In this document: in pieces, positions 2,944 to 25,757 of the stretch | Layout of the letters: each line of letters starts with the position of its first letter | How positions within the stretch are numbered: position 1 is the stretch's first letter | NCBI RefSeq assembly: GCF_009557235.1 | Contig: NZ_CP045650.1 | Span: 750,001 to 782,000 of the forward strand | DNA length: 32,000 nucleotides | Direction of reading: 5' to 3' | From: Acinetobacter wanghuae | GTDB taxonomy: Bacteria; Pseudomonadota; Gammaproteobacteria; Pseudomonadales; Moraxellaceae | Program-made: the position numbers and the translations under genes | Notes under the pieces: generated by a model | What the model saw: the letters and a program-made list of their open reading frames with translations, nothing else | Database searches by the model: none | What the model was told of the DNA's origin: nothing

Positions 2944-3933
2944 GTGAAGCTCAAGGTATTTACCCTTACGATAATAATGACAAGTTTAACCGCCTGTACA
3001 CAGGTCGAGCGTTTAAAATCAGGCGCTGAGCCGAATTATGCAAGCCCACAAGAATTCATTGCCAAAAAAAATTTAAACAATCAAGATGGGACTGCCAAGG
3101 AATATATTTACGTTTGGGATGCAAAACAAAAAGGCAATAGCACACAATCTTTACTTCCGCGCACCACACTAAGCCAGTATTGTCATGCGAAGTCAGGTCG
3201 CTTGGTGCTGTCGTATAAAAGCCAATTGAGCTTAGTGAAAAATGCGGCACAAAAGCGTCGTTTAGCAGCTGATAAAAGTTTGGCACAAGGCATTGGTGCG
3301 TATCAGTGCAAATTTGCAGATGGCACACATTGGTTGGTATCCATTGAGCCGATGAGTGAGCAAGCTGTGCAGAAGAATAGCGCCACACGTTCGGTTAAAT
3401 TACTGACCAAAGTCATGAGCATGCATGAAGCACGTCAGTTTTATCGTGGGGCAGTATCTCTAGATAAAAAAATAGAATCCCCTAAAAATAGTGCCAAAAA
3501 TACCCAAAAAGAGGTCGCAAAAAAAGAAACAAGTTTAAAAGAGCACTTAAAAGAAAACCCAAGCAAAGATTTAAAGCCAACAGTTGATGTGGCGACGCCT
3601 ACGGTATTACCGAATAACCATGCAGCCGAGAGCGTACAACAGCAGCAGGCACGTTTATATGTTGCAGCCCGTCGTGATATTAACACGGGTAAAAACATCA
3701 CCAATGCCTGTAATAATGCACAAAAAGCCTATAGCTTCGGTAAATTGCAAGGTACTGAGGGAACACGTGTTTATACGGAGTCGGGGATGTTGGTGGCACG
3801 TTGTTTAAATAACATTCCGTCATATGGCAGCCGTATTCCAAATGCCAAAGGACAAGCCAAACGGATTTTGACCAATCTTGCTAATAATTATAATCATTCG
3901 GGTGCAAAAAATATGCTGCGCCAAATGAAGTAA
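2944..3933 (+). CDS. Hypothetical lipoprotein
   Basis: GTG start. Signal peptide MKLKVFTLTIIMTSLTAC with lipobox L-T-A-C. Lys/Glu-rich low-complexity middle. No family recognised. Confidence 0.7.
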   Translation: MKLKVFTLTIIMTSLTACTQVERLKSGAEPNYASPQEFIAKKNLNNQDGTAKEYIYVWDAKQKGNSTQSLLPRTTLSQYCHAKSGRLVLSYKSQLSLVKNAAQKRRLAADKSLAQGIGAYQCKFADGTHWLVSIEPMSEQAVQKNSATRSVKLLTKVMSMHEARQFYRGAVSLDKKIESPKNSAKNTQKEVAKKETSLKEHLKENPSKDLKPTVDVATPTVLPNNHAAESVQQQQARLYVAARRDINTGKNITNACNNAQKAYSFGKLQGTEGTRVYTESGMLVARCLNNIPSYGSRIPNAKGQAKRILTNLANNYNHSGAKNMLRQMK

Positions 3934-4083
3934 AAGCAAAATTTTGATGAATTGTCTATCTTTTAAGATAGGCATTTTTATGCGTTTATAGATGAATTGC
4001 TGTTTATTTTTTACAGAGCCATAACAGGCTATGTATGGTGCTTTGTGGTACAAAGAAGGCATCAGCATGGAGTAGTTTATACA

Positions 4084-4605
4084 ATGTCTTTTCGTCTTTT
4101 TAAAACGATTAAAAATATTCATCCTGCAGTGAAATCTGCCGTTCTGGCATGTGCTTTACTGAGTTCTGTGCAAATGACCGCAGCGAGTACTGCACAAGAT
4201 CAGCTCAGTAGTTGCTTAGTGAAGGCGACGACTGCGGCAGATAAGACTGCGGTTTTACAATGGACGTTTGTTGCGCTGTCAACGCATCCTGATTTACAAG
4301 CATTCGCTCAAGTGAATGCTGCACAAAAAGAACAATTGGATAAAAACTTTGCGGCGGTTTTGCAACGGATTTTGGTGGAGCAATGTTCAGCTCAAGCCAA
4401 AGCTGTGATTCAAGCCGATGGTGTTGAAGGTATTGGGTCAAGTTTCCAAGAGCTTGGGCAAATCACGGGCGACGAAATTTTAAAAAATCCTGAAATTAAA
4501 GCGCAGCTCAAAGGCGTGCTGAAATATGTCGATTTAAATAAATTAGTCATGACCTTTTTAACGCCAGATATTTGGAATAAGTTGGGCGCGATTCGAGGGC
4601 TGTAA
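4084..4605 (+). CDS. Hypothetical secreted protein (signal peptide)
   Basis: Track ORF is 3997..4605. The ATG at 4084 is preceded by ggag about 11 nt upstream and gives MSFRLFKTIKNIHPAVKSAVLACALLSSVQMTAAS, a signal-peptide-like N-terminus. No family recognised. Confidence 0.65.
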   Translation: MSFRLFKTIKNIHPAVKSAVLACALLSSVQMTAASTAQDQLSSCLVKATTAADKTAVLQWTFVALSTHPDLQAFAQVNAAQKEQLDKNFAAVLQRILVEQCSAQAKAVIQADGVEGIGSSFQELGQITGDEILKNPEIKAQLKGVLKYVDLNKLVMTFLTPDIWNKLGAIRGL

Positions 4606-5940: not shown

Positions 5941-6021
5941 AATAGAACAACCTCTCCTTAGCCTTTTTTTTTCTTGCGCTTCGTTTTAAAAGCAATGCTT
6001 TAAAACTTGCTCAGGAGAGGT
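5941..6021 (-). terminator. Candidate compound terminator / junction hairpin downstream of the islet operon
   Basis: Outer 9-bp arms acctctcct (5950-5958) / aggagaggt (6013-6021) enclose an inner AT-rich hairpin, gttttaaaagc (5983-5993) / gctttaaaac (5997-6006). On the minus strand the outer stem is followed by ttgttctattttt. This is not a textbook terminator. Confidence 0.3.
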
Positions 6022-6040
6022 GGGCTAAACTGTACATGCA

Positions 6041-6736
6041 TTATAAATCAAATAAATCATACTGTGCTTTATCTGTAAGATTATAAATTTCAGAAATTTT
6101 GTTTTTGAATATATTAACTCCTCCATAGCTTGGATGGCGAACATGATGTTGGATCATATGATCTGGTATATCTAGTTTTTTTATAGATTCAAAAGAATCA
6201 TTCCCAATACATATAATTCTAGAAATATTTAGACTATTAATTAGTTTGGTAAGTATATAAATACCGAACTCTTCTTCAAGACGATTATACTTTCTGTTAC
6301 TTTGCTGGTTGTCTTTTTCATAAGGATGAAATGGGAAAATATTCCAAAAAAATATATTTTTAGGTAATTTTTCATACATTGTCCAAATTGTATTTGCAGA
6401 AACCTCAGATGATAAATTCTTTTCTTTGCTAACTATTTGTAGATTAAGATTCAACTTACTGTTTAAAGAGTTAATATTATTTTCACTGGTAAAAGGAATG
6501 CCTGTTCTTCTTCCACCCTTATATCCAAGATCTCGACCTATCCATAAATCAATCGAATCTAGAGTGGAAAAATATTCTAAATACAATTTTAAATTTTCTA
6601 ATCTTATTTTATTAGCCGTATGAACATCATAGAGATCACATATATCTTTATAGGGATTGAAAGTGTTGGTAAATTGTTTTTTAGATAAGTCACTGATTAT
6701 ACTTTTTAGATTATTTTTCATCATTCGGTGGTTCAA
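6041..6736 (-). CDS. Uracil-DNA-glycosylase-superfamily (UDG-like) protein
   Basis: Motif A-like WIGRDLGYKGGRRTGIPFTSE (GRDLGY encoded at 6521-6538) resembles family-1 GQDPYH...GLxFS and family-4 GEAPG...GxPFxG. Motif B-like RHPSYGG (HPS at about 6128-6136) lies near the C-terminus. The internal WNIFPFHP is also seen in UDG-like proteins. The track start at 6736 is TTG; ATGs at 6724 and 6721 are alternatives. Overlaps the upstream gene. Confidence 0.75.
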   Translation of the reverse strand: MNHRMMKNNLKSIISDLSKKQFTNTFNPYKDICDLYDVHTANKIRLENLKLYLEYFSTLDSIDLWIGRDLGYKGGRRTGIPFTSENNINSLNSKLNLNLQIVSKEKNLSSEVSANTIWTMYEKLPKNIFFWNIFPFHPYEKDNQQSNRKYNRLEEEFGIYILTKLINSLNISRIICIGNDSFESIKKLDIPDHMIQHHVRHPSYGGVNIFKNKISEIYNLTDKAQYDLFDL

Positions 6737-7871
6737 ATATTATTGATCTATTATTTAAGTCTACTCTAATGGTACCTGTTTTATGCTTGGATAATAATGT
6801 AAAAACTCTAAAGCCTTCGTAAATTGCTTCTTTCCATAGGGCAGGCGGACAGTTCTCTACCTCATATCCCTTGACAAAAAGTTGTACATTTTTAATCAAC
6901 TTGGTTGAAATATCTTTGCGTTCACTAAAGTAGTTATAAGCTTTAGCTTGATTGAAAATCCAAGCCGAGATCCCTTCTTCGACAACTATGGCTCTGCCTG
7001 AATCTTCATTCTCATCGAAATCCGGATTACTTTTTCTCTTTCTTTTCAATAAAGCTCTAAAGACAGGAGACCAATGTAAAATTGCAGCATATGATATATG
7101 AAAGATATCATGATATCTGTAATTATCCTTGTCTTTATGGTTGTCAGTTAATGGATCACCTAAGAAAACTTCACCATATTTCATATGAATTCTGCCAGAA
7201 GATCTTTTAACAAAAACAATTTCGAAATTATCGGGAAACCGTTCATCCTCAGGGAATGAGCTATCAAAAGGTTTTTGGATTTTAGGATAGTCTGAAATTA
7301 TTTCATTCCATGCAAAATTATCATTTTTAATTTTTTTTGAATTTGTTTTGATGATTCTTTCAAAATCACATTTAACAAAAAATAAAATTCTCCAAAAAGT
7401 CCTGAGAAAGCTTATATAAGCTGTTTTATCTTTACTTTTTAAGGTTAAGGATTTTTCGTGTAAATTAAATAATAATTTATTTTTAAAATCTTGGTGATTT
7501 TCAATTGATTCTTTTTCAACAATTAGGGGTAGAAATTTGGGATCAATTTTTTTGAAATATTCCTTTTGGTATAAAACTTGACTAGTTTCTTGTATTAATG
7601 TGTTGAGATCAAACTCTAACTCTATACAGGATAAGGTAAAATACCAAAGTATATCACCGAGTTCTTCTTCTATTTCTAACTCCGTAATCTTTGACATTTC
7701 TGATAAAGCTTTTTCTTTTATTTTTCTTTTTGAAATAGTTAGTAGTCCACCAATTTCACCATAGAGACCCAATAAGGAATAATTAAATTTATCTTTTTTA
7801 ATTTGACATGTACTTTTGACTAAATTTTGATATTCACTAATAAAATCACTTCCATTCATTAGGATTGCCAT
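6711..7871 (-). CDS. MazG-like all-alpha NTP pyrophosphohydrolase domain protein with a long uncharacterised C-terminal region
   Basis: Residues about 33-90, LLGLYGEIGGLLTISKRKIKE...EIEEELGDILWYFTLSCIELEFDL, match the MazG-like signature (LGLxGExGE...KK...ELGDvLWY). ATG at 7871 with SD agagg 5 nt upstream. The C-terminal part, of about 285 aa, contains YRYHDIFHISYAAILHWSP (7068-7121) and DFDENEDSGRAIVVEEG. Confidence 0.8.
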   Translation of the reverse strand: MAILMNGSDFISEYQNLVKSTCQIKKDKFNYSLLGLYGEIGGLLTISKRKIKEKALSEMSKITELEIEEELGDILWYFTLSCIELEFDLNTLIQETSQVLYQKEYFKKIDPKFLPLIVEKESIENHQDFKNKLLFNLHEKSLTLKSKDKTAYISFLRTFWRILFFVKCDFERIIKTNSKKIKNDNFAWNEIISDYPKIQKPFDSSFPEDERFPDNFEIVFVKRSSGRIHMKYGEVFLGDPLTDNHKDKDNYRYHDIFHISYAAILHWSPVFRALLKRKRKSNPDFDENEDSGRAIVVEEGISAWIFNQAKAYNYFSERKDISTKLIKNVQLFVKGYEVENCPPALWKEAIYEGFRVFTLLSKHKTGTIRVDLNNRSIIFEPPNDEK

Positions 7872-8454
7872 AAATACCTCTTGGTAAGGTTTGCCAATAT
7901 TTTTCTAATTCAGATATAAAATCGCTATGGAATCTATTCTTGTGATGACGTTTTACCGTAATATTTTTATTTGCAATAACATTATCTAGCAAATTATTAG
8001 GTAAGAGGATAGCATTATTTCCATAGTAAACAAAATTATCGCTAATTAAGACTTTATCCACTTGAGTGTCATGATCTCTGTTTCCTGTGTGAGTTATTGC
8101 ATTCGGGAAAGAGTGGTGTGAATCAAGTTGAACATATCTATTTAAACTATCTTGATAATAAATATTGTCACCAAATTGTCTTTTGGGATGTGACTTTATC
8201 GTAGGTTTTTTTAATTTAAATCTTTTGTCATTGAAATAATTTTCAAATGTTAAAATTTCAGTAACTTCCATAGCATAGATCAATCTATGTCCACCATCTC
8301 CACGGTACTTTTTACCAGCTAGACCAAAAATTTTATCTCCCACTTTGGCAGACTTTCTTGTCCTAGGTTTACAATTAGCAAGTGTACAAAAACCATAAAA
8401 AGGATTTGGTGCGAATCCGAAATCTCTATCTACAATGTAAGAAAAGAAATTCAT
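7846..8454 (-). CDS. Nmad2-like (nucleotide-modification-associated domain 2) protein, tentative
   Basis: The N-terminal motif SYIVDRDFGFAPNPFYGFCTLANCKPRTRK (8353-8442) matches my memory of the Nmad2 family signature (D-x-GFAPNPF-x-G-x-CTLA-x-CKP). His-rich C-terminal half (HHSFPNAITHTGNRDHD, KRHHKNRFH). The CDS call is solid (TAATG coupling to the upstream gene). The family call needs an HMM check. Confidence 0.7.
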   Translation of the reverse strand: MNFFSYIVDRDFGFAPNPFYGFCTLANCKPRTRKSAKVGDKIFGLAGKKYRGDGGHRLIYAMEVTEILTFENYFNDKRFKLKKPTIKSHPKRQFGDNIYYQDSLNRYVQLDSHHSFPNAITHTGNRDHDTQVDKVLISDNFVYYGNNAILLPNNLLDNVIANKNITVKRHHKNRFHSDFISELEKYWQTLPRGIYGNPNEWK

Positions 8455-8855
8455 TATAATCTTTTTCCTGTTTTACAGTTTACTCGCTTTATATCTTTAA
8501 TTTCTTCTTCTGAGCAGTCAGGTAGCTGTATGATTGTATCGTATGATTGTATCAGTGAAGGTATAAGGACAATATTGTCTTCGCATAATAAAGAATCTAA
8601 AAGATCTTTAATATCTTTAGGTAGATAACTTGTTAATGCTGTTGTAGACCAAACACCTATTACGTACTGAGAGGCTCTAACATTTCTAATAATTATATCT
8701 TTAAAGGATGTTAGATCTCTGTCAATTACAATTATTAAGTAATTGGTTTTTTCTTGAATTAGCTCATTATATTGAACTTCTTTGAGAGCTAAATTCAGTG
8801 TAGATAGAGTTTTTTGTTTAACTGTAGAATTACTGTCTGATATCAAGTAAGACAT
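8454..8855 (-). CDS. Hypothetical protein (133 aa), first gene of the islet operon
   Basis: ATG at 8855 with agga about 12 nt upstream. The stop overlaps the next start (TAATG at 8452-8456). An alternating beta/alpha-like pattern (NYLIIVIDRD / QYVIGVWSTT / NIVLIPSLIQ) suggests a small alpha/beta fold. No family recognised. Confidence 0.6.
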   Translation of the reverse strand: MSYLISDSNSTVKQKTLSTLNLALKEVQYNELIQEKTNYLIIVIDRDLTSFKDIIIRNVRASQYVIGVWSTTALTSYLPKDIKDLLDSLLCEDNIVLIPSLIQSYDTIIQLPDCSEEEIKDIKRVNCKTGKRL

Positions 8856-8923
8856 GAAATTATATATTCCTGTTTTATTATGCTTAGATAATTTAAATGT
8901 ATCACATTTGTTTTTATATTGTA

Positions 8924-8956
8924 TAAAAAACCCGCTCTAAAGCGGGTTTTCTTTTT
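8924..8956 (-). terminator. Rho-independent terminator after gatB
   Basis: Stem cccgct (8931-8936) / agcggg (8941-8946), extended by flanking A/T pairs. On the minus strand it is followed by tttttt. Confidence 0.75.
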
Positions 8957-8970
8957 CAGAATTGATCAGA

Positions 8971-10461
8971 TCAACCAATCAATTTCTTCATCAATTCATT
9001 CACTTGAGCAGGGTTGGCTTTACCACGTGATGCTTTCATCACTTGCCCTACAAGACCGTTGAAAGCTTTCTCTTTACCAGATTTATACTCTTCAACCATC
9101 TTCTCGTTGGCAGCAAGCACGTCTTTAATAATTGCTTCAATTGCGCCTGTATCAGTTTCCTGTTTCAAGCCTTTTTCCGCAATAATCTCGTCCGCAGTTT
9201 TACCTTCTTCCCACATAAAGCCAAACACTTGTTTCGCGATCTTACCGCTAATCGTGTTATCCACAATGCGCGCAATCATACCGCCAAGTTTTTCCGCAGA
9301 TACAGGAGAATCAGTCAATTCTAAGCCTGCTTTATTTAAAGCACCTGAGAATTCACCCATCACCCAGTTAGCCGCAATCTTACCTTGTGCAGCACCGCCA
9401 GCAGCTTTCACGACAACTTCATAGAAGTCTGAAAGTTCACGAGTCAACGTTAAAACGTGAGCATCGTATTCAGTCACACCAAAGTCCGCCACGAAACGTT
9501 CACGACGTGCTTTTGGTAACTCAGGCATCGTTGCTTTAATCGCTTCGATTTGCTCATCTGCAATAATGACAGGCAAAAGATCAGGGTCAGGGAAGTAGCG
9601 GTAATCGTTCGCTTCTTCTTTCGAACGCATTGAACGCGTTTCCATCTTCACAGGGTCGAACAAACGAGTTTCTTGGTCGATTTTACCGCCATCTTCCAAG
9701 ATTTCCATTTGACGTTCAATTTCAACATTGATCGCCTGTTCAATGAAACGGAATGAGTTCAAGTTTTTAAGCTCACAACGTGTACCGAATTCTTCACCCG
9801 GACGACGCAATGACACGTTACAGTCACAACGGAATGAACCTTCCGCCATGTTACCGTCAGAGATGCCTAACCAACGCACCAAGGTATGAATCGCTTTAAT
9901 ATAAGCAACCGCTTCTTCAACCGAACGCATATCTGGTTCAGATACAATTTCTAACAGCGGTGTGCCTGCACGGTTTAAGTCGATGCCTGACATGCCTTCA
10001 AATTGGTCATGAATCGATTTACCTGCATCTTCCTCTAAATGAGCACGTGTCACGCCAATGCGTTTAATGCCATCTTCAAGTTGAATGTCGATATGACCCA
10101 AGCCCACAATTGGGTTGTCCATTTGGCTAATTTGATAGCCTTTTGGAGAGTCAGGATAGAAATAGTTTTTACGTGCAAATACAGAAGCTTGGTCGATATA
10201 CGCATCAATACCCAAACCAAATCGAATCGCAAGATCAACCACTTCTTTGTTGAGTACAGGCAACACGCCCGGCATTGCCAAATCAACAAGGCTTGCTTGG
10301 GTATTTGGATCATTACCAAAAACAGTCGATGAACCTGAGAAAATTTTGGTATTGGTGGCAAGCTGAGTGTGAATCTCGATACCAATAACTACTTCCCAAC
10401 CATCAATCAGGTTAGATTTTGGTTTAGCCGCTTTTGTAGCATTGTTTTGAGCTTGAGCCAT
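8971..10461 (-). CDS. gatB: Asp-tRNA(Asn)/Glu-tRNA(Gln) amidotransferase subunit B
   Basis: Full-length GatB-like sequence ([14 protein letters not shown]..., [22 protein letters not shown]-terminal GatB/YqeY-like tail). The start overlaps the gatA stop (TAATG). Confidence 0.97.
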
Positions 10462-20527: not shown

Positions 20528-21937
20528 TTAGAAACGGTAACCAATTTTCAAGCTATAGCCGATAGCATCGTTGTCTTCAAATTTAGCTGCAGTTTTTTCA
20601 GTACCAAAATAGCTTGCTACTTGAGAATCAGCATCACCTAGCCAGAAGTATTTCACACCTGCTTGAATAAATGATTGAGGAGTAGGTGAATATTGACCAC
20701 CAATACCTGCGCTCCAGTAACCCTCAGTTGGACCAAGAGTTGAAACTGGATTACCTGCACCAGAGTCCCAACCTGCCATCACTGTACCAGCCCATTTATC
20801 ATTAAATTTACGACCGATACCTACGTTTGCTGAGATTTGATCTTTTTCATATGCAATTAAATCAAAACCACGCTTAGAAGGGTTTGGATTTTCAGTAGTC
20901 TTCTTATTTGTTAAATCAGCAGCTAATTGACCGAATTTATAAGGGCGAATTGCAAAATTAGACCACTCAACCCAACGTAATTGAGCAAATGCAACAGTAT
21001 TTGCCATAATGCCTGTTTGGAAGTCTAAGTTTACAGATTGAGGAGTCGTTATCTTAGTTTTTCCTTCTTCAAAGACAAATTTCTCAGCCATTGAAGGAAT
21101 GCCGCCTAAACTGCCTCCTAAAGTGCTATTCCATGGCATAGACTCTTCAATATTAACTTTATGATCAATTTCAGAACGATAAGTTAAAGAAGCTTTAAGT
21201 GCAATTTCAGGGATTTGATATGCTAAACCAGCTAGCCATCCAACTGAAGAGTTTTCTGAAATAGAAGCTTCATATCCTTTATAAAGGGTTTTTGAACCTT
21301 TTTCGTAGGCTTGTAAATTACATGCAGCTATGCAAACGATACCTGCAAGTGGGCCGTAGGCTGTACCACGCAGTTGAACATTACCTTTAACTGTTTGATA
21401 AACAGGACCAGCATAAATATTCCAGTTTTCAGTTGGTTGATAACCCAAAATGAAAGAAAGGTTTTGAGTTTGTACATCTACTTCTGTAGATTCTTCACCT
21501 AAAGTAAATGCCCCTACTTGATTAGTGCCTAGATTACCTTGAAGAGTTGAACCTGGAGCACCATGTCTTGTATCGGCTTGATTGTATTTCGCATTAGCAC
21601 CGAAAGGCTGATCATATATTAGACCAAATGAAAAATTATCATTCAATTGAACTTTTAATGCAGCACTAGGAAAATAATAACTTTCCGCCATGTCTCCTAA
21701 TTCACTACCTTTTAAAGGTTTTGTAATAGTGTTATTAGTGCTACTTGGGATAAGAAAATCGTCGTTTATTTTCCCAGAAACGTTGGCGTCTAAAACAGAA
21801 ATTCCTGCTTCAAAGTAGTTGCCAGGCTGTAAGAAAGCTTGAATCGATTGACCAGAACGATCAAGAGCAGCAGCAAATGCTCCAGAAATTGGCAAGCTTG
21901 ATAATAAAATCGCAGTACTTAATGTTTTTAATTTCAT
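20528..21937 (-). CDS. FadL/TodX-family outer-membrane channel for hydrophobic compounds or long-chain fatty acids, paralog 1
   Basis: The ATG at 21937 gives the signal peptide MKLKTLSTAILLSSLPISGAFA, then the hatch-like LDRSGQSIQAFLQPGNYFEAG and the C-terminal beta-barrel signature ...YSLKIGYRF. The track ORF extends to 22102 with no support. Confidence 0.88.
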   Translation of the reverse strand: MKLKTLSTAILLSSLPISGAFAAALDRSGQSIQAFLQPGNYFEAGISVLDANVSGKINDDFLIPSSTNNTITKPLKGSELGDMAESYYFPSAALKVQLNDNFSFGLIYDQPFGANAKYNQADTRHGAPGSTLQGNLGTNQVGAFTLGEESTEVDVQTQNLSFILGYQPTENWNIYAGPVYQTVKGNVQLRGTAYGPLAGIVCIAACNLQAYEKGSKTLYKGYEASISENSSVGWLAGLAYQIPEIALKASLTYRSEIDHKVNIEESMPWNSTLGGSLGGIPSMAEKFVFEEGKTKITTPQSVNLDFQTGIMANTVAFAQLRWVEWSNFAIRPYKFGQLAADLTNKKTTENPNPSKRGFDLIAYEKDQISANVGIGRKFNDKWAGTVMAGWDSGAGNPVSTLGPTEGYWSAGIGGQYSPTPQSFIQAGVKYFWLGDADSQVASYFGTEKTAAKFEDNDAIGYSLKIGYRF

Positions 21938-22032
21938 CTTAACGAATGTCCATTTTTTGTTACTAATAACGAGAATCTTTCTGTTATGTAAAAGCTGATA
22001 TGTATTACATTTTTTTTCATACCATGTACATA

Positions 22033-22060
22033 AAGCTAACAGAACAAAAAAAAGAGTAAA
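22033..22060 (-). promoter_or_regulatory. Candidate promoter of FadL paralog 1
   Basis: Gene-sense strand reads TTTACT, 16 nt ending in TGT, then TAGCTT. The same architecture and partly the same sequence occur upstream of paralogs 2 and 3. Confidence 0.35.
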
Positions 22061-22460
22061 GACTCTAAAAGATAAGTTTTTTGTTTTTAAAGATATTGAC
22101 ACGAATTATTTGGTTTTTTTTTATGTTTAACATTATGAATATTAATAATATATTTAATGATGATGATCATCATTTGAAGTGCATTACTTTGAGTTTAATT
22201 GTTTATTTTTTGTTCTATTGTTAAAAATAATATAATTAATAGAATAATTGTAACTTTGATTTTATCTAGAATTTAGAATTATTCAGGGTAAGTCTTTTAA
22301 GAAAATCCAATGATTTTTAAAATTATAAAAATAAGTAATGCTTATTTTAAATGTATTGAGAAATAAGATTTGTTTAGAATAATTAAATAAAGTAGCAAGG
22401 GCAATAAATCTAAGAAATTTTTACACTTGATCTATTACCTTTTAATATTTCTTTCAAAGT

Positions 22461-22491
22461 AAAAAAAGGATACTTAAGCATCCTTTTTTTT
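22461..22491 (-). terminator. Terminator after FadL paralog 2
   Basis: Hairpin aggata(c) / (g)catcct flanked by an A-run and a T-run. One mismatch in the stem. Confidence 0.55.
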
Positions 22492-22502
22492 ACAGTTTGA
22501 GC

Positions 22503-23690
22503 TTAGAAACGGTAACCAATTTTCATACCGTATGCCCAAGCATTGTTGTCTTCAAATTCGGCGACGATGTTACCGCCTGTTTGAGCATGAGCATCGCCTA
22601 ACCATAAATGTTTAACGCCCGCTTGGATAAAGTAGTTTGCAGCAGGGCTATACTGTGCCCCGAGACCAAGACTCCAGTAGCCTTCAGTTGGACCAAGTGT
22701 CGTAACAGGATTCCCTGCACCTGAGTCCCAACCTACGGTTGTAGAGGCTGACCATTTTTCAGAGAACTTATGTCCTAAACCAAGATTTGCTGACCATTGA
22801 TCTTTGTCATAAGAAATAAGGTCTTGTGAGCTTTGACCCGGAATTTTTCCTAAGCTATTTAATAGTTGCGGAGATACAGTAAATTGATCCCAATGTACCC
22901 AGCGAAGATTAGCAAAAACTAATGTATTTTCACTAACACCAGACTGTAGATCAATATTGACTGATTGCGGTGTTGTAGCATTAACAATTCCATCAATTTC
23001 GCGAAGATCAATGAGACCAGGAACAGCAATTTTCGAAGTTTCATGTGCTTGAGCATTATGTTTGATTTCTGAACGGTAAGTTACAGCAGCCTTAAGCGCA
23101 ATTTCTGGAATTTGATAGGCAAAGCCAGCTAACCAACCATATGCTTCTTCTTGCTCAACTTTAATATTGTAACCAGATAAGCTTTTATATGCAGCACCAC
23201 GTAATTTAATATCCGCTTCTACAGTTTGCCAAACCGGACCAGCATAAAAATTCCAGTTTTCATTGGGTTGAAAACCAATTAGTGCTGTCAAATTTTGAGT
23301 TTCAACCTCTACAGATGTACCTTCGCCTGCTTGAGAGAAAGTAGATACAGGTCCATTTACAGAATATATTGCGTCTGCACCATAAGGCTGGTCATAAATG
23401 AGGCCTAGAGAAATCTTATCGGTTGCTTGAACTTTGATTGCGGTATTGATGAAGTAATAATCATCAGCCATATCGCTAATTTTATCACCGGTATAATCGC
23501 CAAAATCATTCTTAACAGTTGAAGTGCCTTTTACATCGGGGTCAAGGATAGAAATACCCGCTTCAGCATAATTTCCCGGTTGTAAAAATGCTTGAATTGA
23601 TTGACCTGAACGATCTAAACCACCCGCAAATACGGCAGAAGTAGATAAAGTGCATGCAAAAAGTGCAATCGATAATGGCTTAAGCTTCAT
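22503..23690 (-). CDS. FadL/TodX-family outer-membrane channel, paralog 2
   Basis: Signal peptide MKLKPLSIALFACTLSTSAVFA, LDRSGQSIQAFLQPGNYAEAG, and C-terminus ...YGMKIGYRF. Confidence 0.9.
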   Translation of the reverse strand: MKLKPLSIALFACTLSTSAVFAGGLDRSGQSIQAFLQPGNYAEAGISILDPDVKGTSTVKNDFGDYTGDKISDMADDYYFINTAIKVQATDKISLGLIYDQPYGADAIYSVNGPVSTFSQAGEGTSVEVETQNLTALIGFQPNENWNFYAGPVWQTVEADIKLRGAAYKSLSGYNIKVEQEEAYGWLAGFAYQIPEIALKAAVTYRSEIKHNAQAHETSKIAVPGLIDLREIDGIVNATTPQSVNIDLQSGVSENTLVFANLRWVHWDQFTVSPQLLNSLGKIPGQSSQDLISYDKDQWSANLGLGHKFSEKWSASTTVGWDSGAGNPVTTLGPTEGYWSLGLGAQYSPAANYFIQAGVKHLWLGDAHAQTGGNIVAEFEDNNAWAYGMKIGYRF

Positions 23691-23734
23691 GGTTCATCCT
23701 TGATGTCGCATAAACAGATTTAAAAAGTGGTGGA

Positions 23735-23762
23735 AAAATAACATAATTTCAAAAAGAGTAAA
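23735..23762 (-). promoter_or_regulatory. Candidate promoter of FadL paralog 2
   Basis: Gene-sense strand reads TTTACT, 16 nt ending in TGT, then TATTTT. Lies inside a 34-nt block (23734-23767) that is 30/34 identical to 25462-25495. Confidence 0.4.
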
Positions 23763-23970
23763 TGCTCAGTTCTCTATTGTTAATGAACTGTATCGGATAA
23801 AGTTAAGGCTTGCTTAGAGTAGTTATACTAATTCAATTGGACTAAAGTTATGAATTATATATTGATAATTAAATTGCATTGGCTGAATTGACGGAAATAA
23901 TTAAAATATTCTAAGTGTTTTAAAATTAGGCAAATAGTTTACAAGTGTATAAAAATATTTATACGATATT

Positions 23971-23995
23971 AAAAAACCACCCGAAGGTGGTTTTC
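23971..23995 (-). terminator. Terminator after FadL paralog 3
   Basis: Stem aaaaccacc / ggtggtttt with loop cgaa (C-UUCG-G on the minus strand), followed by a T-run on the minus strand. Confidence 0.75.
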
Positions 23996-24010
23996 TAGAA
24001 AATAATTGGA

Positions 24011-25348
24011 TTAGAATTTGTAACCGATTTTAAGACCGTAACCAATCGCATTATTATCTTCAAATTTACCAACATTCGGGTTGGCAACAGTCAATGCATC
24101 AGCATCACCCAACCAGAAGTATTTCACACCACCTGCAATAAAGTAGTTAGGAGCAGGACTAAATTGCAAACCTAGACCAAGATTCCAATAACCTTCAGTT
24201 GGTCCTAAAGTTGTAACAGGATTTCCTGCACCAGAATCCCAGCCTACAGAGACATTACCAGCCCATTTTTCACTGAATTTGCGACCTAGACCACCAGTAA
24301 CAGTCCATTGCTCTTTATTGTATTCAACTAAATTGCCACCTTTCAAAGCAGATTGACCTGGTAATGTCGAAAGAGCATCTAATACTTGCCCAAATTGATT
24401 AGGACGAATCGCAAAACCTTTCCAGTCCACCCAGCGTACATTTAAGAATGCAACTGTATCTGCCATGATGCCAGATTGAAGATCAAGATTTACAGATTGG
24501 GGTGTTGTTACTTTGGTTTTACCGTCAGTAAATGCATCCACGTTGTTTCTTGCAGCTGTAGCAGCTGCACCAGCCCCTGCCTGAGCTTGTGCTGGGGTTG
24601 CTCCAGCTGCAATATACTGTGCATATGCACCAGCATAGGTTAAACCAAATACGGTATTACCAGTTGCATCGAATGGAGTTACTCCACCAATAGTTTCATT
24701 AACATTAAGTTCATGTTCGATTTCAGAACGATAGGTTAGAGATGCTTTCAGCGCAATTTCCGGAATTTGATAAGCTAAACCAGCAAGCCAACCCACCTCA
24801 CTATCTCTCTTTAAGTTAGCATCGTAACCACTTAAAGCTGAATAAGCTGCACCGCGGAGCGCTACTTCTCCTTTAGCTTCTTGATAAACAGCACCTGCGT
24901 AAATATTCCAATTTACATTTGGTTGAAAGCCTAGCAAAAGAGAAAGGTTTTCTGTATGAACTTCAGCCTCGGTACCCTCATTTCCTGTTGGATTGAATGC
25001 ACCTGATTGATTTTTGTATTCAGCTTTAGCACCGAATGGTTGGTCGTAGAGTAAACCAACAGAAAAATTCTCTGTTGCTTGAATTTTAAGTGCTGCTGAA
25101 GGGAAGTAATAAGAACTTGCCATATCACCAGTTGCTTGAGATGGAACAACAGTACCCGTAGGCGTAACAATCCTAGATGAATTACCAGAAACATCAGCAT
25201 CTAGTACAGAAATCCCTGCTTCAAAGTAGTTACCGGGTTGTAAAAATGCCGAGATAGATTGACCTGAGCGATCCATTGCAGCAGCAAATGCACCTGACAT
25301 TGGTAGCGCTGCTAAAATCATTGCTGTACTAAGCGTTTTTAATTTCAT
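24011..25348 (-). CDS. FadL/TodX-family outer-membrane channel, paralog 3
   Basis: Signal peptide MKLKTLSTAMILAALPMSGAFA, MDRSGQSISAFLQPGNYFEAG, an Ala-rich insert GATPAQAQAGAGAAATAARNN, and C-terminus ...YGLKIGYKF. Confidence 0.9.
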   Translation of the reverse strand: MKLKTLSTAMILAALPMSGAFAAAMDRSGQSISAFLQPGNYFEAGISVLDADVSGNSSRIVTPTGTVVPSQATGDMASSYYFPSAALKIQATENFSVGLLYDQPFGAKAEYKNQSGAFNPTGNEGTEAEVHTENLSLLLGFQPNVNWNIYAGAVYQEAKGEVALRGAAYSALSGYDANLKRDSEVGWLAGLAYQIPEIALKASLTYRSEIEHELNVNETIGGVTPFDATGNTVFGLTYAGAYAQYIAAGATPAQAQAGAGAAATAARNNVDAFTDGKTKVTTPQSVNLDLQSGIMADTVAFLNVRWVDWKGFAIRPNQFGQVLDALSTLPGQSALKGGNLVEYNKEQWTVTGGLGRKFSEKWAGNVSVGWDSGAGNPVTTLGPTEGYWNLGLGLQFSPAPNYFIAGGVKYFWLGDADALTVANPNVGKFEDNNAIGYGLKIGYKF

Positions 25349-25681: not shown

Positions 25682-25757
25682 TGGTGCGCCCTGTGGGAGT
25701 CGAACCCACGTCGGTCACTTAGGAGGCAACTGCTCTATCCAATTAAGCTAAGGGCAC
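25682..25757 (-). tRNA. tRNA-Arg (anticodon CCT)
   Basis: The reverse complement folds by hand into a cloverleaf. Acceptor GTGCCCT/AGGGCGC, D-stem GCTT/GAGC, anticodon stem GTTGC/GTGAC with loop CT-CCT-AA, T-arm GTGGG-TTCGACT-CCCAC, discriminator A plus encoded CCA. 76 nt. Confidence 0.9.

Follow-up and report, generated by a model that had tools for sequence, protein, structure and literature searches.

We analysed a 32,000-nucleotide (nt) stretch of the Acinetobacter wanghuae genome (contig NZ_CP045650.1, positions 750,001–782,000; hereafter the window, numbered from its first letter), which contains a compact operon of four minus-strand genes, here called A to D, between gatB and qor. In an initial annotation made from the sequence alone, the operon was described as AT-rich, coding for an orphan protein followed by Nmad2-like, MazG-like and UDG-like (uracil-DNA glycosylase-like) proteins, and was put forward as a candidate undescribed defence or DNA-modification system. 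The analysis below suggests that it is a variant of a widespread cassette with a probable role in defence. The four open reading frames (ORFs) follow one another without gaps, exactly at the coordinates first given for them (Table 1). The TAATG stop/start overlap at the A/B junction (positions 8452–8456) can be read in the sequence, and the B/C and C/D overlaps are 26 nt each by coordinates, or 14 or 11 nt when counted from internal ATGs, in agreement with the earlier description. These internal ATGs are codon 5 of gene C and codons 5 and 6 of gene D ('MNHRMMKNN'), and the shorter Acinetobacter orthologues favour them.

The compositional break claimed for the operon is real, although the earlier G+C counts per line of sequence were slightly low: the island between gatB and qor has a G+C content of 29.1% against 40.6% overall, with values of 0.27–0.32 across positions 6001–9000 compared with 0.42–0.45 in gatB/gatA and qor. 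A single, tightly coupled and horizontally acquired operon is supported. The two borders proposed for it, a start just past the gatB terminator and an end at a nested hairpin, were both located. Downstream of gene D, a 20-nt inverted repeat (5950–5969/6002–6021) encloses a smaller hairpin, and the structure folds at −25.8 kcal/mol with a z-score of only −1.5, being modestly stabler than shuffled sequence. Promoter-like sites in this AT-rich region are no commoner than expected from shuffled sequence, so the promoter in front of gene A is a weak candidate. In agreement with the initial annotation, no methylase, nuclease, ATPase, toxin–antitoxin or mobility gene was found in the operon, nor in its immediate flanks. 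No direct repeats or att-like sites were found flanking the island and no Rfam elements in or near the operon, and megablast of the island against plasmids and phages returned a match at the gatB edge only. When the four proteins were scanned with PADLOC-DB 2023, NCBIfam and PHROGs, neither a defence-system model nor an informative name emerged, the sole match being that of gene C to PHROG 229.

Table 1. Features of the operon and its borders in the window (whole-stretch numbering; aa, amino acids)
Feature	Coordinates	Strand	Length	Basis or remark
Gene A, putative short, fast-evolving ThsB-type TIR derivative without N-terminal FxSHxHxDD	8454–8855	minus	133 aa	hhalign and operon slot
Gene B, Nmad2 domain protein, predicted PUA-like (EVE/ASCH-like) fold with conserved polar pocket	7846–8454	minus	202 aa	Pfam and AlphaFold2 (AF2)
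Gene C, MazG–MazG_C fusion	6711–7871	minus	386 aa	
Gene C N-terminal half, all-alpha MazG/dimeric-dUTPase-like domain	7281–7871	minus	aa 1–197	Pfam, PDB profiles, Foldseek
Gene C C-terminal half, MazG_C ('predicted nucleotide kinase' in the literature)	6711–7277	minus	aa 199–386	Pfam PF18722
Gene D, divergent UDG-superfamily glycosylase-like protein	6041–6736	minus	231 aa from TTG start	Pfam UDG and catalytic motifs; ATG at 6724 or 6721 more likely start
gatB intrinsic terminator, upstream border of the island	8927–8950	minus		hairpin and T-run from terminator scan
Candidate promoter, GTGATA-17 nt-CATAAT (−35/−10)	8877–8905	minus		22 nt 5′ of the gene A ATG
Nested hairpin followed by U-rich tract, probable operon terminator and downstream border	5950–6021	minus		inverted repeat I1

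All of the motifs quoted in the initial annotation are present in the window proteins, and its three domain assignments were borne out by profile searches. Gene C was 37–42% identical over 96–99% of its length to relatives in other phyla. It matched Pfam MazG (PF03819) weakly at E=0.01 and MazG_C (PF18722) at E=2.3e-72, as well as PHROG 229 ('MazG-like pyrophosphatase'), the C-terminal region of which corresponds to MazG_C. PDB profile searches paired the N-terminal domain with small MazG proteins (2q73), DCTPP1 and YpjD, and Foldseek matched its AF2 model to dimeric dUTPases (TMt about 0.65) and to the MazG protein DR2231; the domain is predicted to adopt the four-helix fold of MazG and other all-alpha NTP pyrophosphohydrolases. 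The second acidic motif (E69, E70-x2-D73) is invariant and the first metal motif is reduced to a single invariant glutamate, E39 in GEIGG, for which E53, kept in at least 90% of the sequences, might substitute. The AF2 model of MazG_C is confident yet without a PDB structural neighbour by Foldseek. Two possible origins of this domain were rejected by hhalign, with a probability of no more than 0.1% in each case: a duplicated MazG domain, and a relative of the 5-hydroxymethyldeoxyuridine (5-hmdU) DNA kinase (5-HMUDK).

Gene D lies directly downstream of the MazG/MazG_C gene. Its match to Pfam UDG (PF03167) had an E-value of 5e-5 and, at 23.8 bits, fell just below the 24.3-bit cut-off, and all 31 members of the gene D family matched the same model. 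Motif A (GRDLGY..GGRRTG), the Asn motif (WNIFPFHP) and motif B (RHPSYGG) are all kept: GRD69LGY, WN132IFPFH137P and RH201PS, containing the putative catalytic or water-activating residue of motif A, the base-recognition Asn and the motif B His, are invariant in the 31 sequences, and the family columns FNPY..C..D, WxGRDLG.xGGRRTG, WNxFPxHP and RHPSYGG can all be found in gene D. A PDB profile search with the family produced spurious L31 matches only, with no solved relative by sequence.

Gene B matched Pfam Nmad2 (PF18753) over its full length at E=2.9e-62, and its AF2 model had a predicted local distance difference test score (pLDDT) of 89 and a predicted template-modelling score (pTM) of 0.87. 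The Foldseek neighbours of this model in two structure libraries were EVE, ASCH, YTH and McrB-N domains together with viral ASCH/EVE proteins. EVE, ASCH, YTH and McrB-N belong to the PUA-like clan of modified-base readers and processors. Pfam scans detected no sequence similarity of Nmad2 to PUA, EVE or ASCH. Sixteen residues are invariant in the family (D11, N17, C23, C28, K29, R33, D96, N97, Y99, Q109, S112, H113, H114, N125, D129 and T130). To judge from the modelled fold and these residues, Nmad2, a constant companion of the TIR, would be the obvious candidate for binding or processing a base or nucleotide.

The spread of the operon was assessed by a pattern scan with one genome per species. 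Relatives of gene C were found in at least 535 species from more than ten phyla, including Alpha-, Beta- and Gammaproteobacteria, Acidobacteriota, Bacteroidota, Chloroflexota, Planctomycetota, Thermodesulfobacteriota, Nitrospirota, Cyanobacteriota and others. We then determined the gene content of 82 loci by iterative hidden Markov model searches on six-frame ORFs, 75 of these loci being uncut by contig ends (intact). A fixed order on one strand emerged, namely small TIR, Nmad2, MazG/MazG_C and UDG (T-B-C-D), which is kept across phyla by 58 of the 75 intact loci (77%); T-B-C was found in six, C-D in three and C alone in five. In the window, the Nmad2 gene directly precedes and overlaps the MazG_C gene, both being on one strand, and the arrangement recurs in 67/75. 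The pairwise identities of B, C and D co-vary across loci (r=0.84–0.91), therefore the genes evolve as a unit. Cassette G+C was below that of the flanks in 63 out of 66 loci, by 7.6 points on average, and integrases and transposases adjoin the cassette in the loci of relatives. Furthermore, C relatives were found on 35 plasmids, of which 22 are conjugative or mobilizable; the hosts include Streptomyces, Mycobacterium and cyanobacteria. Among 2.9 million viral contigs only three contained the full cassette, and neither MazG_C nor Nmad2 had a tblastn match in 50,697 phage genomes. The cassette is a cellular mobile element and not a phage pathway.

The first slot of the canonical cassette is taken by a small ThsB-type TIR protein of about 155–165 aa with an FxSHxHxDD motif and a catalytic WE. 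It matched the PADLOC ThsB model PDLC00418 end to end (E=2e-94) and aligned to the solved ThsB/TIR structures 6lhy, 9b7d, 8wcf and 8fz9; in this alignment the catalytic-Glu position carries a Trp-Glu that is invariant. A TIR fills this slot in 64 of the 75 intact loci. Four Acinetobacter genomes, that of the window included, instead have in this slot a protein of 133–135 aa without a family match, gene A in the window, which departs from the canonical description in both motif and size. Gene A matched Pfam TIR_2 only faintly (E=0.14); the cassette TIR profile missed it even at E<10, no TIR or ThsB model recognized it at E<0.1 and a PDB profile search with its family yielded nothing meaningful. 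Starting from gene A, jackhmmer recovered only the query itself, a word-indexed search found one homologue, and an exhaustive HMMER search of 1.84 billion proteins found five representatives, all from the same small family, which is confined to an Acinetobacter clade.

The link to TIR proteins became visible by profile–profile comparison only. hhalign related the gene A family to the canonical slot-TIR family with 94–95% probability (E=1e-7 to 3e-8), whereas the controls, namely the B, C and D families, a reversed TIR profile and 20 column-shuffled TIR profiles, reached no more than 1.2%. The alignment pairs residues 39–132 of gene A with TIR residues 66–155, so that gene A covers only the C-terminal two thirds, and the two share the GVW and PD(C/G)S..(I/L)KRxxC motifs. 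The catalytic-Glu column holds Ile in aligned gene A, with a conserved Asp/Glu one position earlier, and on this alignment catalytic competence is doubtful. Together with its position in the slot, the profile match indicates that gene A is a truncated, fast-evolving (degenerate) TIR derivative rather than the orphan it was first taken for, a description that had missed the NAD+/TIR arm of the system. Because gene A lacks the N-terminal motif, has Ile at the Glu column and is missed by the TIR profile, the window operon appears by these sequence comparisons to be a variant of the cassette and not a canonical member. In Phytopseudomonas flavescens (locus L061, 8971–9417), the slot protein is 148 aa long, weakly TIR-like (E=3e-4) and without SHxHxDD; its tail (ARHKCGNKK) resembles that of the Acinetobacter gene A (RVNCKTGKRL), and by sequence it seems to stand midway between the canonical slot TIRs and the degenerate ones. 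Within gene A, positions 8528–8553 hold a perfect 13-nt tandem repeat (GTATGATTGTATC x2), which is in frame and shows no indel relative to the homologues; it is probably fortuitous.

The cassette of the window lies within the gatCAB–sbmA interval. Comparison of the gatB–sbmA interval among Acinetobacter species showed that the cargo varies: in two other species the cassette occupies this same site, and its additional genes and distal flank differ from those of the window, and A. cumulans has unrelated cargo there and no cassette. The A. cumulans locus (L150, NZ_CP035936.1, 98938–115014) is on a 177-kb record labelled as a plasmid, which carries the core chromosomal genes gatCAB, mreBCD, maf, rng and sbmA and is either a chromid or a mis-assigned replicon. 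Two plus-strand ORFs between sbmA and qor in the window, 2944–3933 (329 aa) and 3997–4605 (202 aa), are part of the variable interval and had no Pfam match at E≤1e-5. Elsewhere in the window, three tandem FadL/TodX outer-membrane transporter paralogues occupy 20528–25348 on the minus strand, the first two parted by a spacer at 22001–22500 (G+C 0.20), and a tRNA-Arg(CCT) lies beyond the third (25682–25757).

These comparisons bear on whether the operon might be a housekeeping unit, in which a pool-sanitizing MazG and a uracil-repair glycosylase are co-transcribed by chance with two accessory proteins. Both the MazG and UDG families do include housekeeping enzymes, and the operon sits between gatCAB and qor with no adjacent mobility or known defence genes in the window. 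However, the distribution is patchy, as seen from the A. cumulans locus, which lacks the cassette, and from a blastn search with an enterobacterial cassette that found no match in 5,426 E. coli genomes, and the compositional break is strong. Within Acinetobacter, GatB is 92–93% identical, whereas the cassette proteins (42–73%) diverge 4- to 8-fold faster, gene A being the fastest (42–43%, compared with 65% for B, 73% for C and 63% for D). Carriage on plasmids, obligate linkage to a ThsB-type TIR and Nmad2 across phyla, and the distance of gene D from any solved UDG also argue against a housekeeping role, which we regard as extremely improbable.

The genes of the cassette do not always travel in one block. 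In a prophage-like contig (IMG/VR 2874840943_000002; locus L089, 7989–10865) the order is permuted to C-D-T-B, therefore [TIR–Nmad2] and [MazG–UDG] behave as separable modules. C-D is also found without T-B, and T-B without C-D in DS-4 ('NTTI'), a system validated in E. coli that consists of thymidylate synthase, a deoxynucleoside monophosphate (dNMP) kinase, a 5-hmdU-DNA-kinase-like protein, a TIR and Nmad2 (PMC13092281). A canonical cassette TIR shares 71% identity with the DS-4 TIR (E=1e-90), and gene B of the window 46% with the DS-4 Nmad2 over 147 residues (E=5e-47), therefore TIR–Nmad2 is a conserved two-gene core; to judge from these identities, it is a core combined with alternative enzyme modules. 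BLASTP of the DS-4 TIR against gene A showed no similarity.

The neighbours of the cassette and of lone C genes are of several kinds. The alternative enzyme modules mix, and thymidylate-kinase–HMUDK fusions neighbour the MazG cassette in ten loci. On an Allocoleopsis plasmid (L152, 1290–5675) the co-directional genes are acyl carrier protein, HTH, ImmA/IrrE peptidase, thymidylate synthase, 'nucleotide kinase domain' and MazG/MazG_C, and a Streptomyces plasmid (L151, 1076–5663) has a similar set on mixed strands without an annotated thymidylate synthase; both have an HTH plus ImmA/IrrE pair alongside and carry no TIR, Nmad2 or UDG. Such contexts keep modified-pyrimidine chemistry in play, and with it the second model of the initial annotation, a pathway of self-DNA base modification or base exchange. 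In such a pathway, the operon would build or edit a non-canonical pyrimidine in host DNA, and any protection would stem from the modification itself. The Nmad and MazG_C families are named in Pfam for nucleotide-modification contexts, MazG_C proteins neighbour thymidylate-synthase and 5-hmdU-DNA-kinase-like genes, and DS-4 carries thymidylate synthase, a dNMP kinase and 5-HMUDK. Nevertheless, the window cassette has no thymidylate synthase, aGPT-Pplase, glycosyltransferase or aminotransferase, and a pyrophosphatase combined with a glycosylase is degradative. Its association with a TIR and with regulators of defence type speaks instead for a conflict system that is inducible, and phages, where hypermodification pathways usually reside, almost entirely lack the cassette. 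Self-modification is thus very unlikely in our view.

Other recurrent neighbours were TIR-SLOG proteins (22 loci), extra ThsB-type TIRs (22 and 10 loci), patatin-SLOG proteins (seven loci) and a CapP-like peptidase plus HTH (nine and eight loci). In Pseudoalteromonas piscicida (L001, 7936–9951), a gene for a 671-aa TIR_2 plus SLOG-cluster2 protein is inserted between Nmad2 and MazG/MazG_C, which hints at functional cross-talk of the cassette with TIR-SLOG (Thoeris-like) components. The whole cassette could accordingly be read as Thoeris-like signalling, with the TIR sensing infection and making an NAD+-derived messenger, Nmad2 or MazG_C as its receptor, and MazG (NTP depletion) and UDG (DNA damage) as the effectors that it switches on. 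The canonical TIR is indeed ThsB by PADLOC model and by homology to solved structures, SLOG, the ThsA-type receptor domain, recurs next to the cassette and once inside it, and Nmad2 is modelled with a nucleotide-binding-type fold. Against this, no SLOG, Macro or other known messenger-binding domain is present in the cassette, C-D pairs and lone C occur without any TIR, and DS-4 combines the TIR–Nmad2 pair with enzymes of quite another kind. The Acinetobacter TIR derivative, moreover, has no N-terminal motif and, in the window, no aligned catalytic Glu. We consider this reading unlikely. An uncharacterized family (median about 224 aa), without a Pfam or PADLOC match, was found near the cassette in 15 loci; one member lies directly past the UDG gene on the opposite strand (L004, 11777–12550). 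This family may be a fifth, optional component.

Among the roles considered, defence, which was also the first proposal of the initial annotation, is best supported, because relatives have a ThsB-type TIR partner, the TIR–Nmad2 core is common to DS-4, TIR-SLOG, patatin-SLOG and CapP/HTH genes are recurrent neighbours, the cassette is carried on plasmids, and PADLOC-DB 2023 holds no model for the four window proteins. That the cassette is a conflict or defence system of the TIR–Nmad2 class is, we think, very probable. As to its design, we lean somewhat towards a two-module anti-phage system, in which an attack module of MazG plus UDG is coupled to a sensor/NADase module of Nmad2 plus TIR, the TIR being degenerate in Acinetobacter. 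In the executive arm, the MazG/dimeric-dUTPase-like domain of gene C would hydrolyse a deoxypyrimidine triphosphate, either a phage-type C5-modified deoxynucleoside triphosphate (dNTP) or dUTP/dTTP, and the gene D glycosylase would remove the corresponding base from replicating DNA, so that the two together starve and damage the invading DNA. Since the pyrophosphatase is tightly coupled to the glycosylase, both are suggested to act on the same base, in the pool and in DNA; (modified) deoxypyrimidines are suggested as the substrates because MazG_C is linked to thymidylate synthase and 5-hmdU kinase and the N-terminal domain is dUTPase-like. MazG_C may be a catalytic or regulatory add-on to the pyrophosphatase. 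Genes A and B would form the sensing and amplifying arm: Nmad2 may bind, and possibly process, a non-canonical base or nucleotide in its polar pocket and work with the TIR, which in canonical cassettes would be a ThsB-type NAD+-cleaving enzyme that amplifies by NAD+ cleavage or signalling. The Acinetobacter TIR derivative is probably a non-catalytic adaptor.

A related alternative, which we hold to be quite unlikely, is a 'thymineless' or base-poisoning immunity based on a shift of the deoxypyrimidine pool upon infection. Here, dTTP would be hydrolysed, as it is by the dTTPases of hydroxymethyluracil (hmU) phages, or a phage-specific C5-modified dNTP would be destroyed; phage DNA would then gain or expose uracil or a hydroxymethyl-pyrimidine, and the UDG-fold glycosylase would shred it. 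Nmad2 would capture the excised base or nucleotide and activate the TIR, with NAD+ collapse as the outcome. In this scenario MazG_C would represent a novel enzyme fold, perhaps the predicted kinase, with hydroxymethyl-pyrimidine as its substrate, and the Acinetobacter copy a natural 'TIR-dead' version relying on the nucleotide/DNA arm alone.

Several observations weigh against the two-module defence system that we favour. The matches of Nmad2 to PUA-like structures are moderate (Foldseek E about 3e-3, template-modelling score 0.4–0.5), and so many invariant polar residues would be more in keeping with an enzyme than with a passive reader. With a single Glu in the first metal motif, pyrophosphatase activity of gene C would not be guaranteed, and MazG_C, half of the largest protein, is without explanation. 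The window copy has no recognizable catalytic TIR; should NAD+ cleavage be essential, this copy may be impaired or work differently. Next to the window operon, neither an integrase or transposase nor a known defence gene was seen, and the missing PADLOC-DB 2023 models for B, C and D count on this side too. Against lambda, DS-4 had a recorded effect of modest size (about 0.9 log, small plaques; Table S7 of PMC13092281), and the support in the literature for a defence role of the cassette is a machine-learning prediction alone.

The cassette is compact (2.8 kb) and very widespread, including on conjugative plasmids, and it joins a TIR, a PUA-like protein, a MazG with an uncharacterized 190-residue domain and a UDG-fold glycosylase, which have never been shown jointly in immunity. 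If the enzymes act as proposed, the cassette would represent a new immune logic joining dNTP-pool editing, base excision and NAD+ signalling. DS-4, with which the TIR–Nmad2 core is shared, is validated but mechanistically unexplored, and solving one of the two systems should explain a network that includes the thymidylate-synthase and 5-hmdU-kinase versions. The Acinetobacter copies, with their motif-less TIR derivative, provide a natural experiment on the need for TIR catalysis. The genus is, moreover, of clinical importance as a target of phage therapy, which makes an unrecognized defence operon practically relevant.

With regard to known systems, the claim of the initial annotation that the combination is undescribed and unnamed holds only in part. 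It is not a named or characterized system, and a literature search on Nmad2, ThsB plus MazG, and TIR plus MazG plus glycosylase found no experimental study of the cassette. The combination itself, on the other hand, had already been published as a prediction: in DefensePredictor (DeWeirdt, Mahoney, Laub, Science 2026, PMC13092281), Fig. 6F and S12B present MazG/MazG-C plus NMAD plus UDG as a predicted, unvalidated defence system, with MazG-C labelled 'predicted nucleotide kinase', and the accompanying text states that several such domains had been predicted in defence by Burroughs et al. 2015. By its description, the predicted system resembles the window operon in the three recognizable products. 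The window copy has a truncated TIR derivative where most cassettes have a TIR of ThsB type, and this degenerate-TIR variant in Acinetobacter is not pointed out in the literature we found. The cassette is thus a published prediction whose core has one validated relative. With that relative, DS-4, the window shares the adjacent TIR and Nmad2 pair, the TIR only as a divergent derivative; in place of MazG/MazG_C and UDG, DS-4 has thymidylate synthase, the kinase and HMUDK, none of which is present in the window operon or its flanks.

The likeness to Thoeris lies in the canonical slot TIR, which is ThsB by PDLC00418 and aligns to 6lhy and 9b7d, and of which gene A of the window is only a remote derivative, and in the ThsB-like TIRs and SLOG-domain proteins that are frequent neighbours of the cassette. 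It differs from Thoeris in that Pfam and PADLOC revealed no ThsA (SIR2-SLOG, Macro or transmembrane effector) in the cassette or the window, where the flanks are qor, gatB and unknown ORFs. In an experimental precedent, a PUA-clan domain is the sensor of a modified nucleotide, and the effectors coupled to it are either nucleotide-depleting (calcineurin-CE, rarely MazG) or TIR proteins (bioRxiv 10.64898/2026.01.15.699771). Nmad2 is comparable with these PUA-Cal-HAD systems in being modelled as a PUA-like fold; it is, however, a separate stand-alone family, and no calcineurin-CE or HAD gene is present.

For gene D, a mechanistic precedent is offered by Brig1, reportedly a single-gene UDG-fold glycosylase that excises glucosyl-hydroxymethylcytosine from T-even phage DNA. 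The two can be likened at the superfamily level only, gene D being a candidate for the same use of a UDG-superfamily protein against phage DNA bases, and gene D differs in being obligately coupled to the MazG/MazG_C protein (r=0.91 co-variation). As for the nucleotide arm, dNTP-depleting defence enzymes include dCTP deaminase and dGTPase, and the toolkit of hmU phages consists of dUMP hydroxymethylase, dNMP kinase, dTTPase/dUTPase and 5-HMUDK. The cassette proteins have no sequence relationship to dCTP deaminase or dGTPase, and the window cassette contains no hydroxymethylase or kinase. What they would have in common with the window operon is manipulation of the deoxynucleotide pool during infection, and MazG_C proteins co-occur with thymidylate-synthase-like and 5-HMUDK-like genes.

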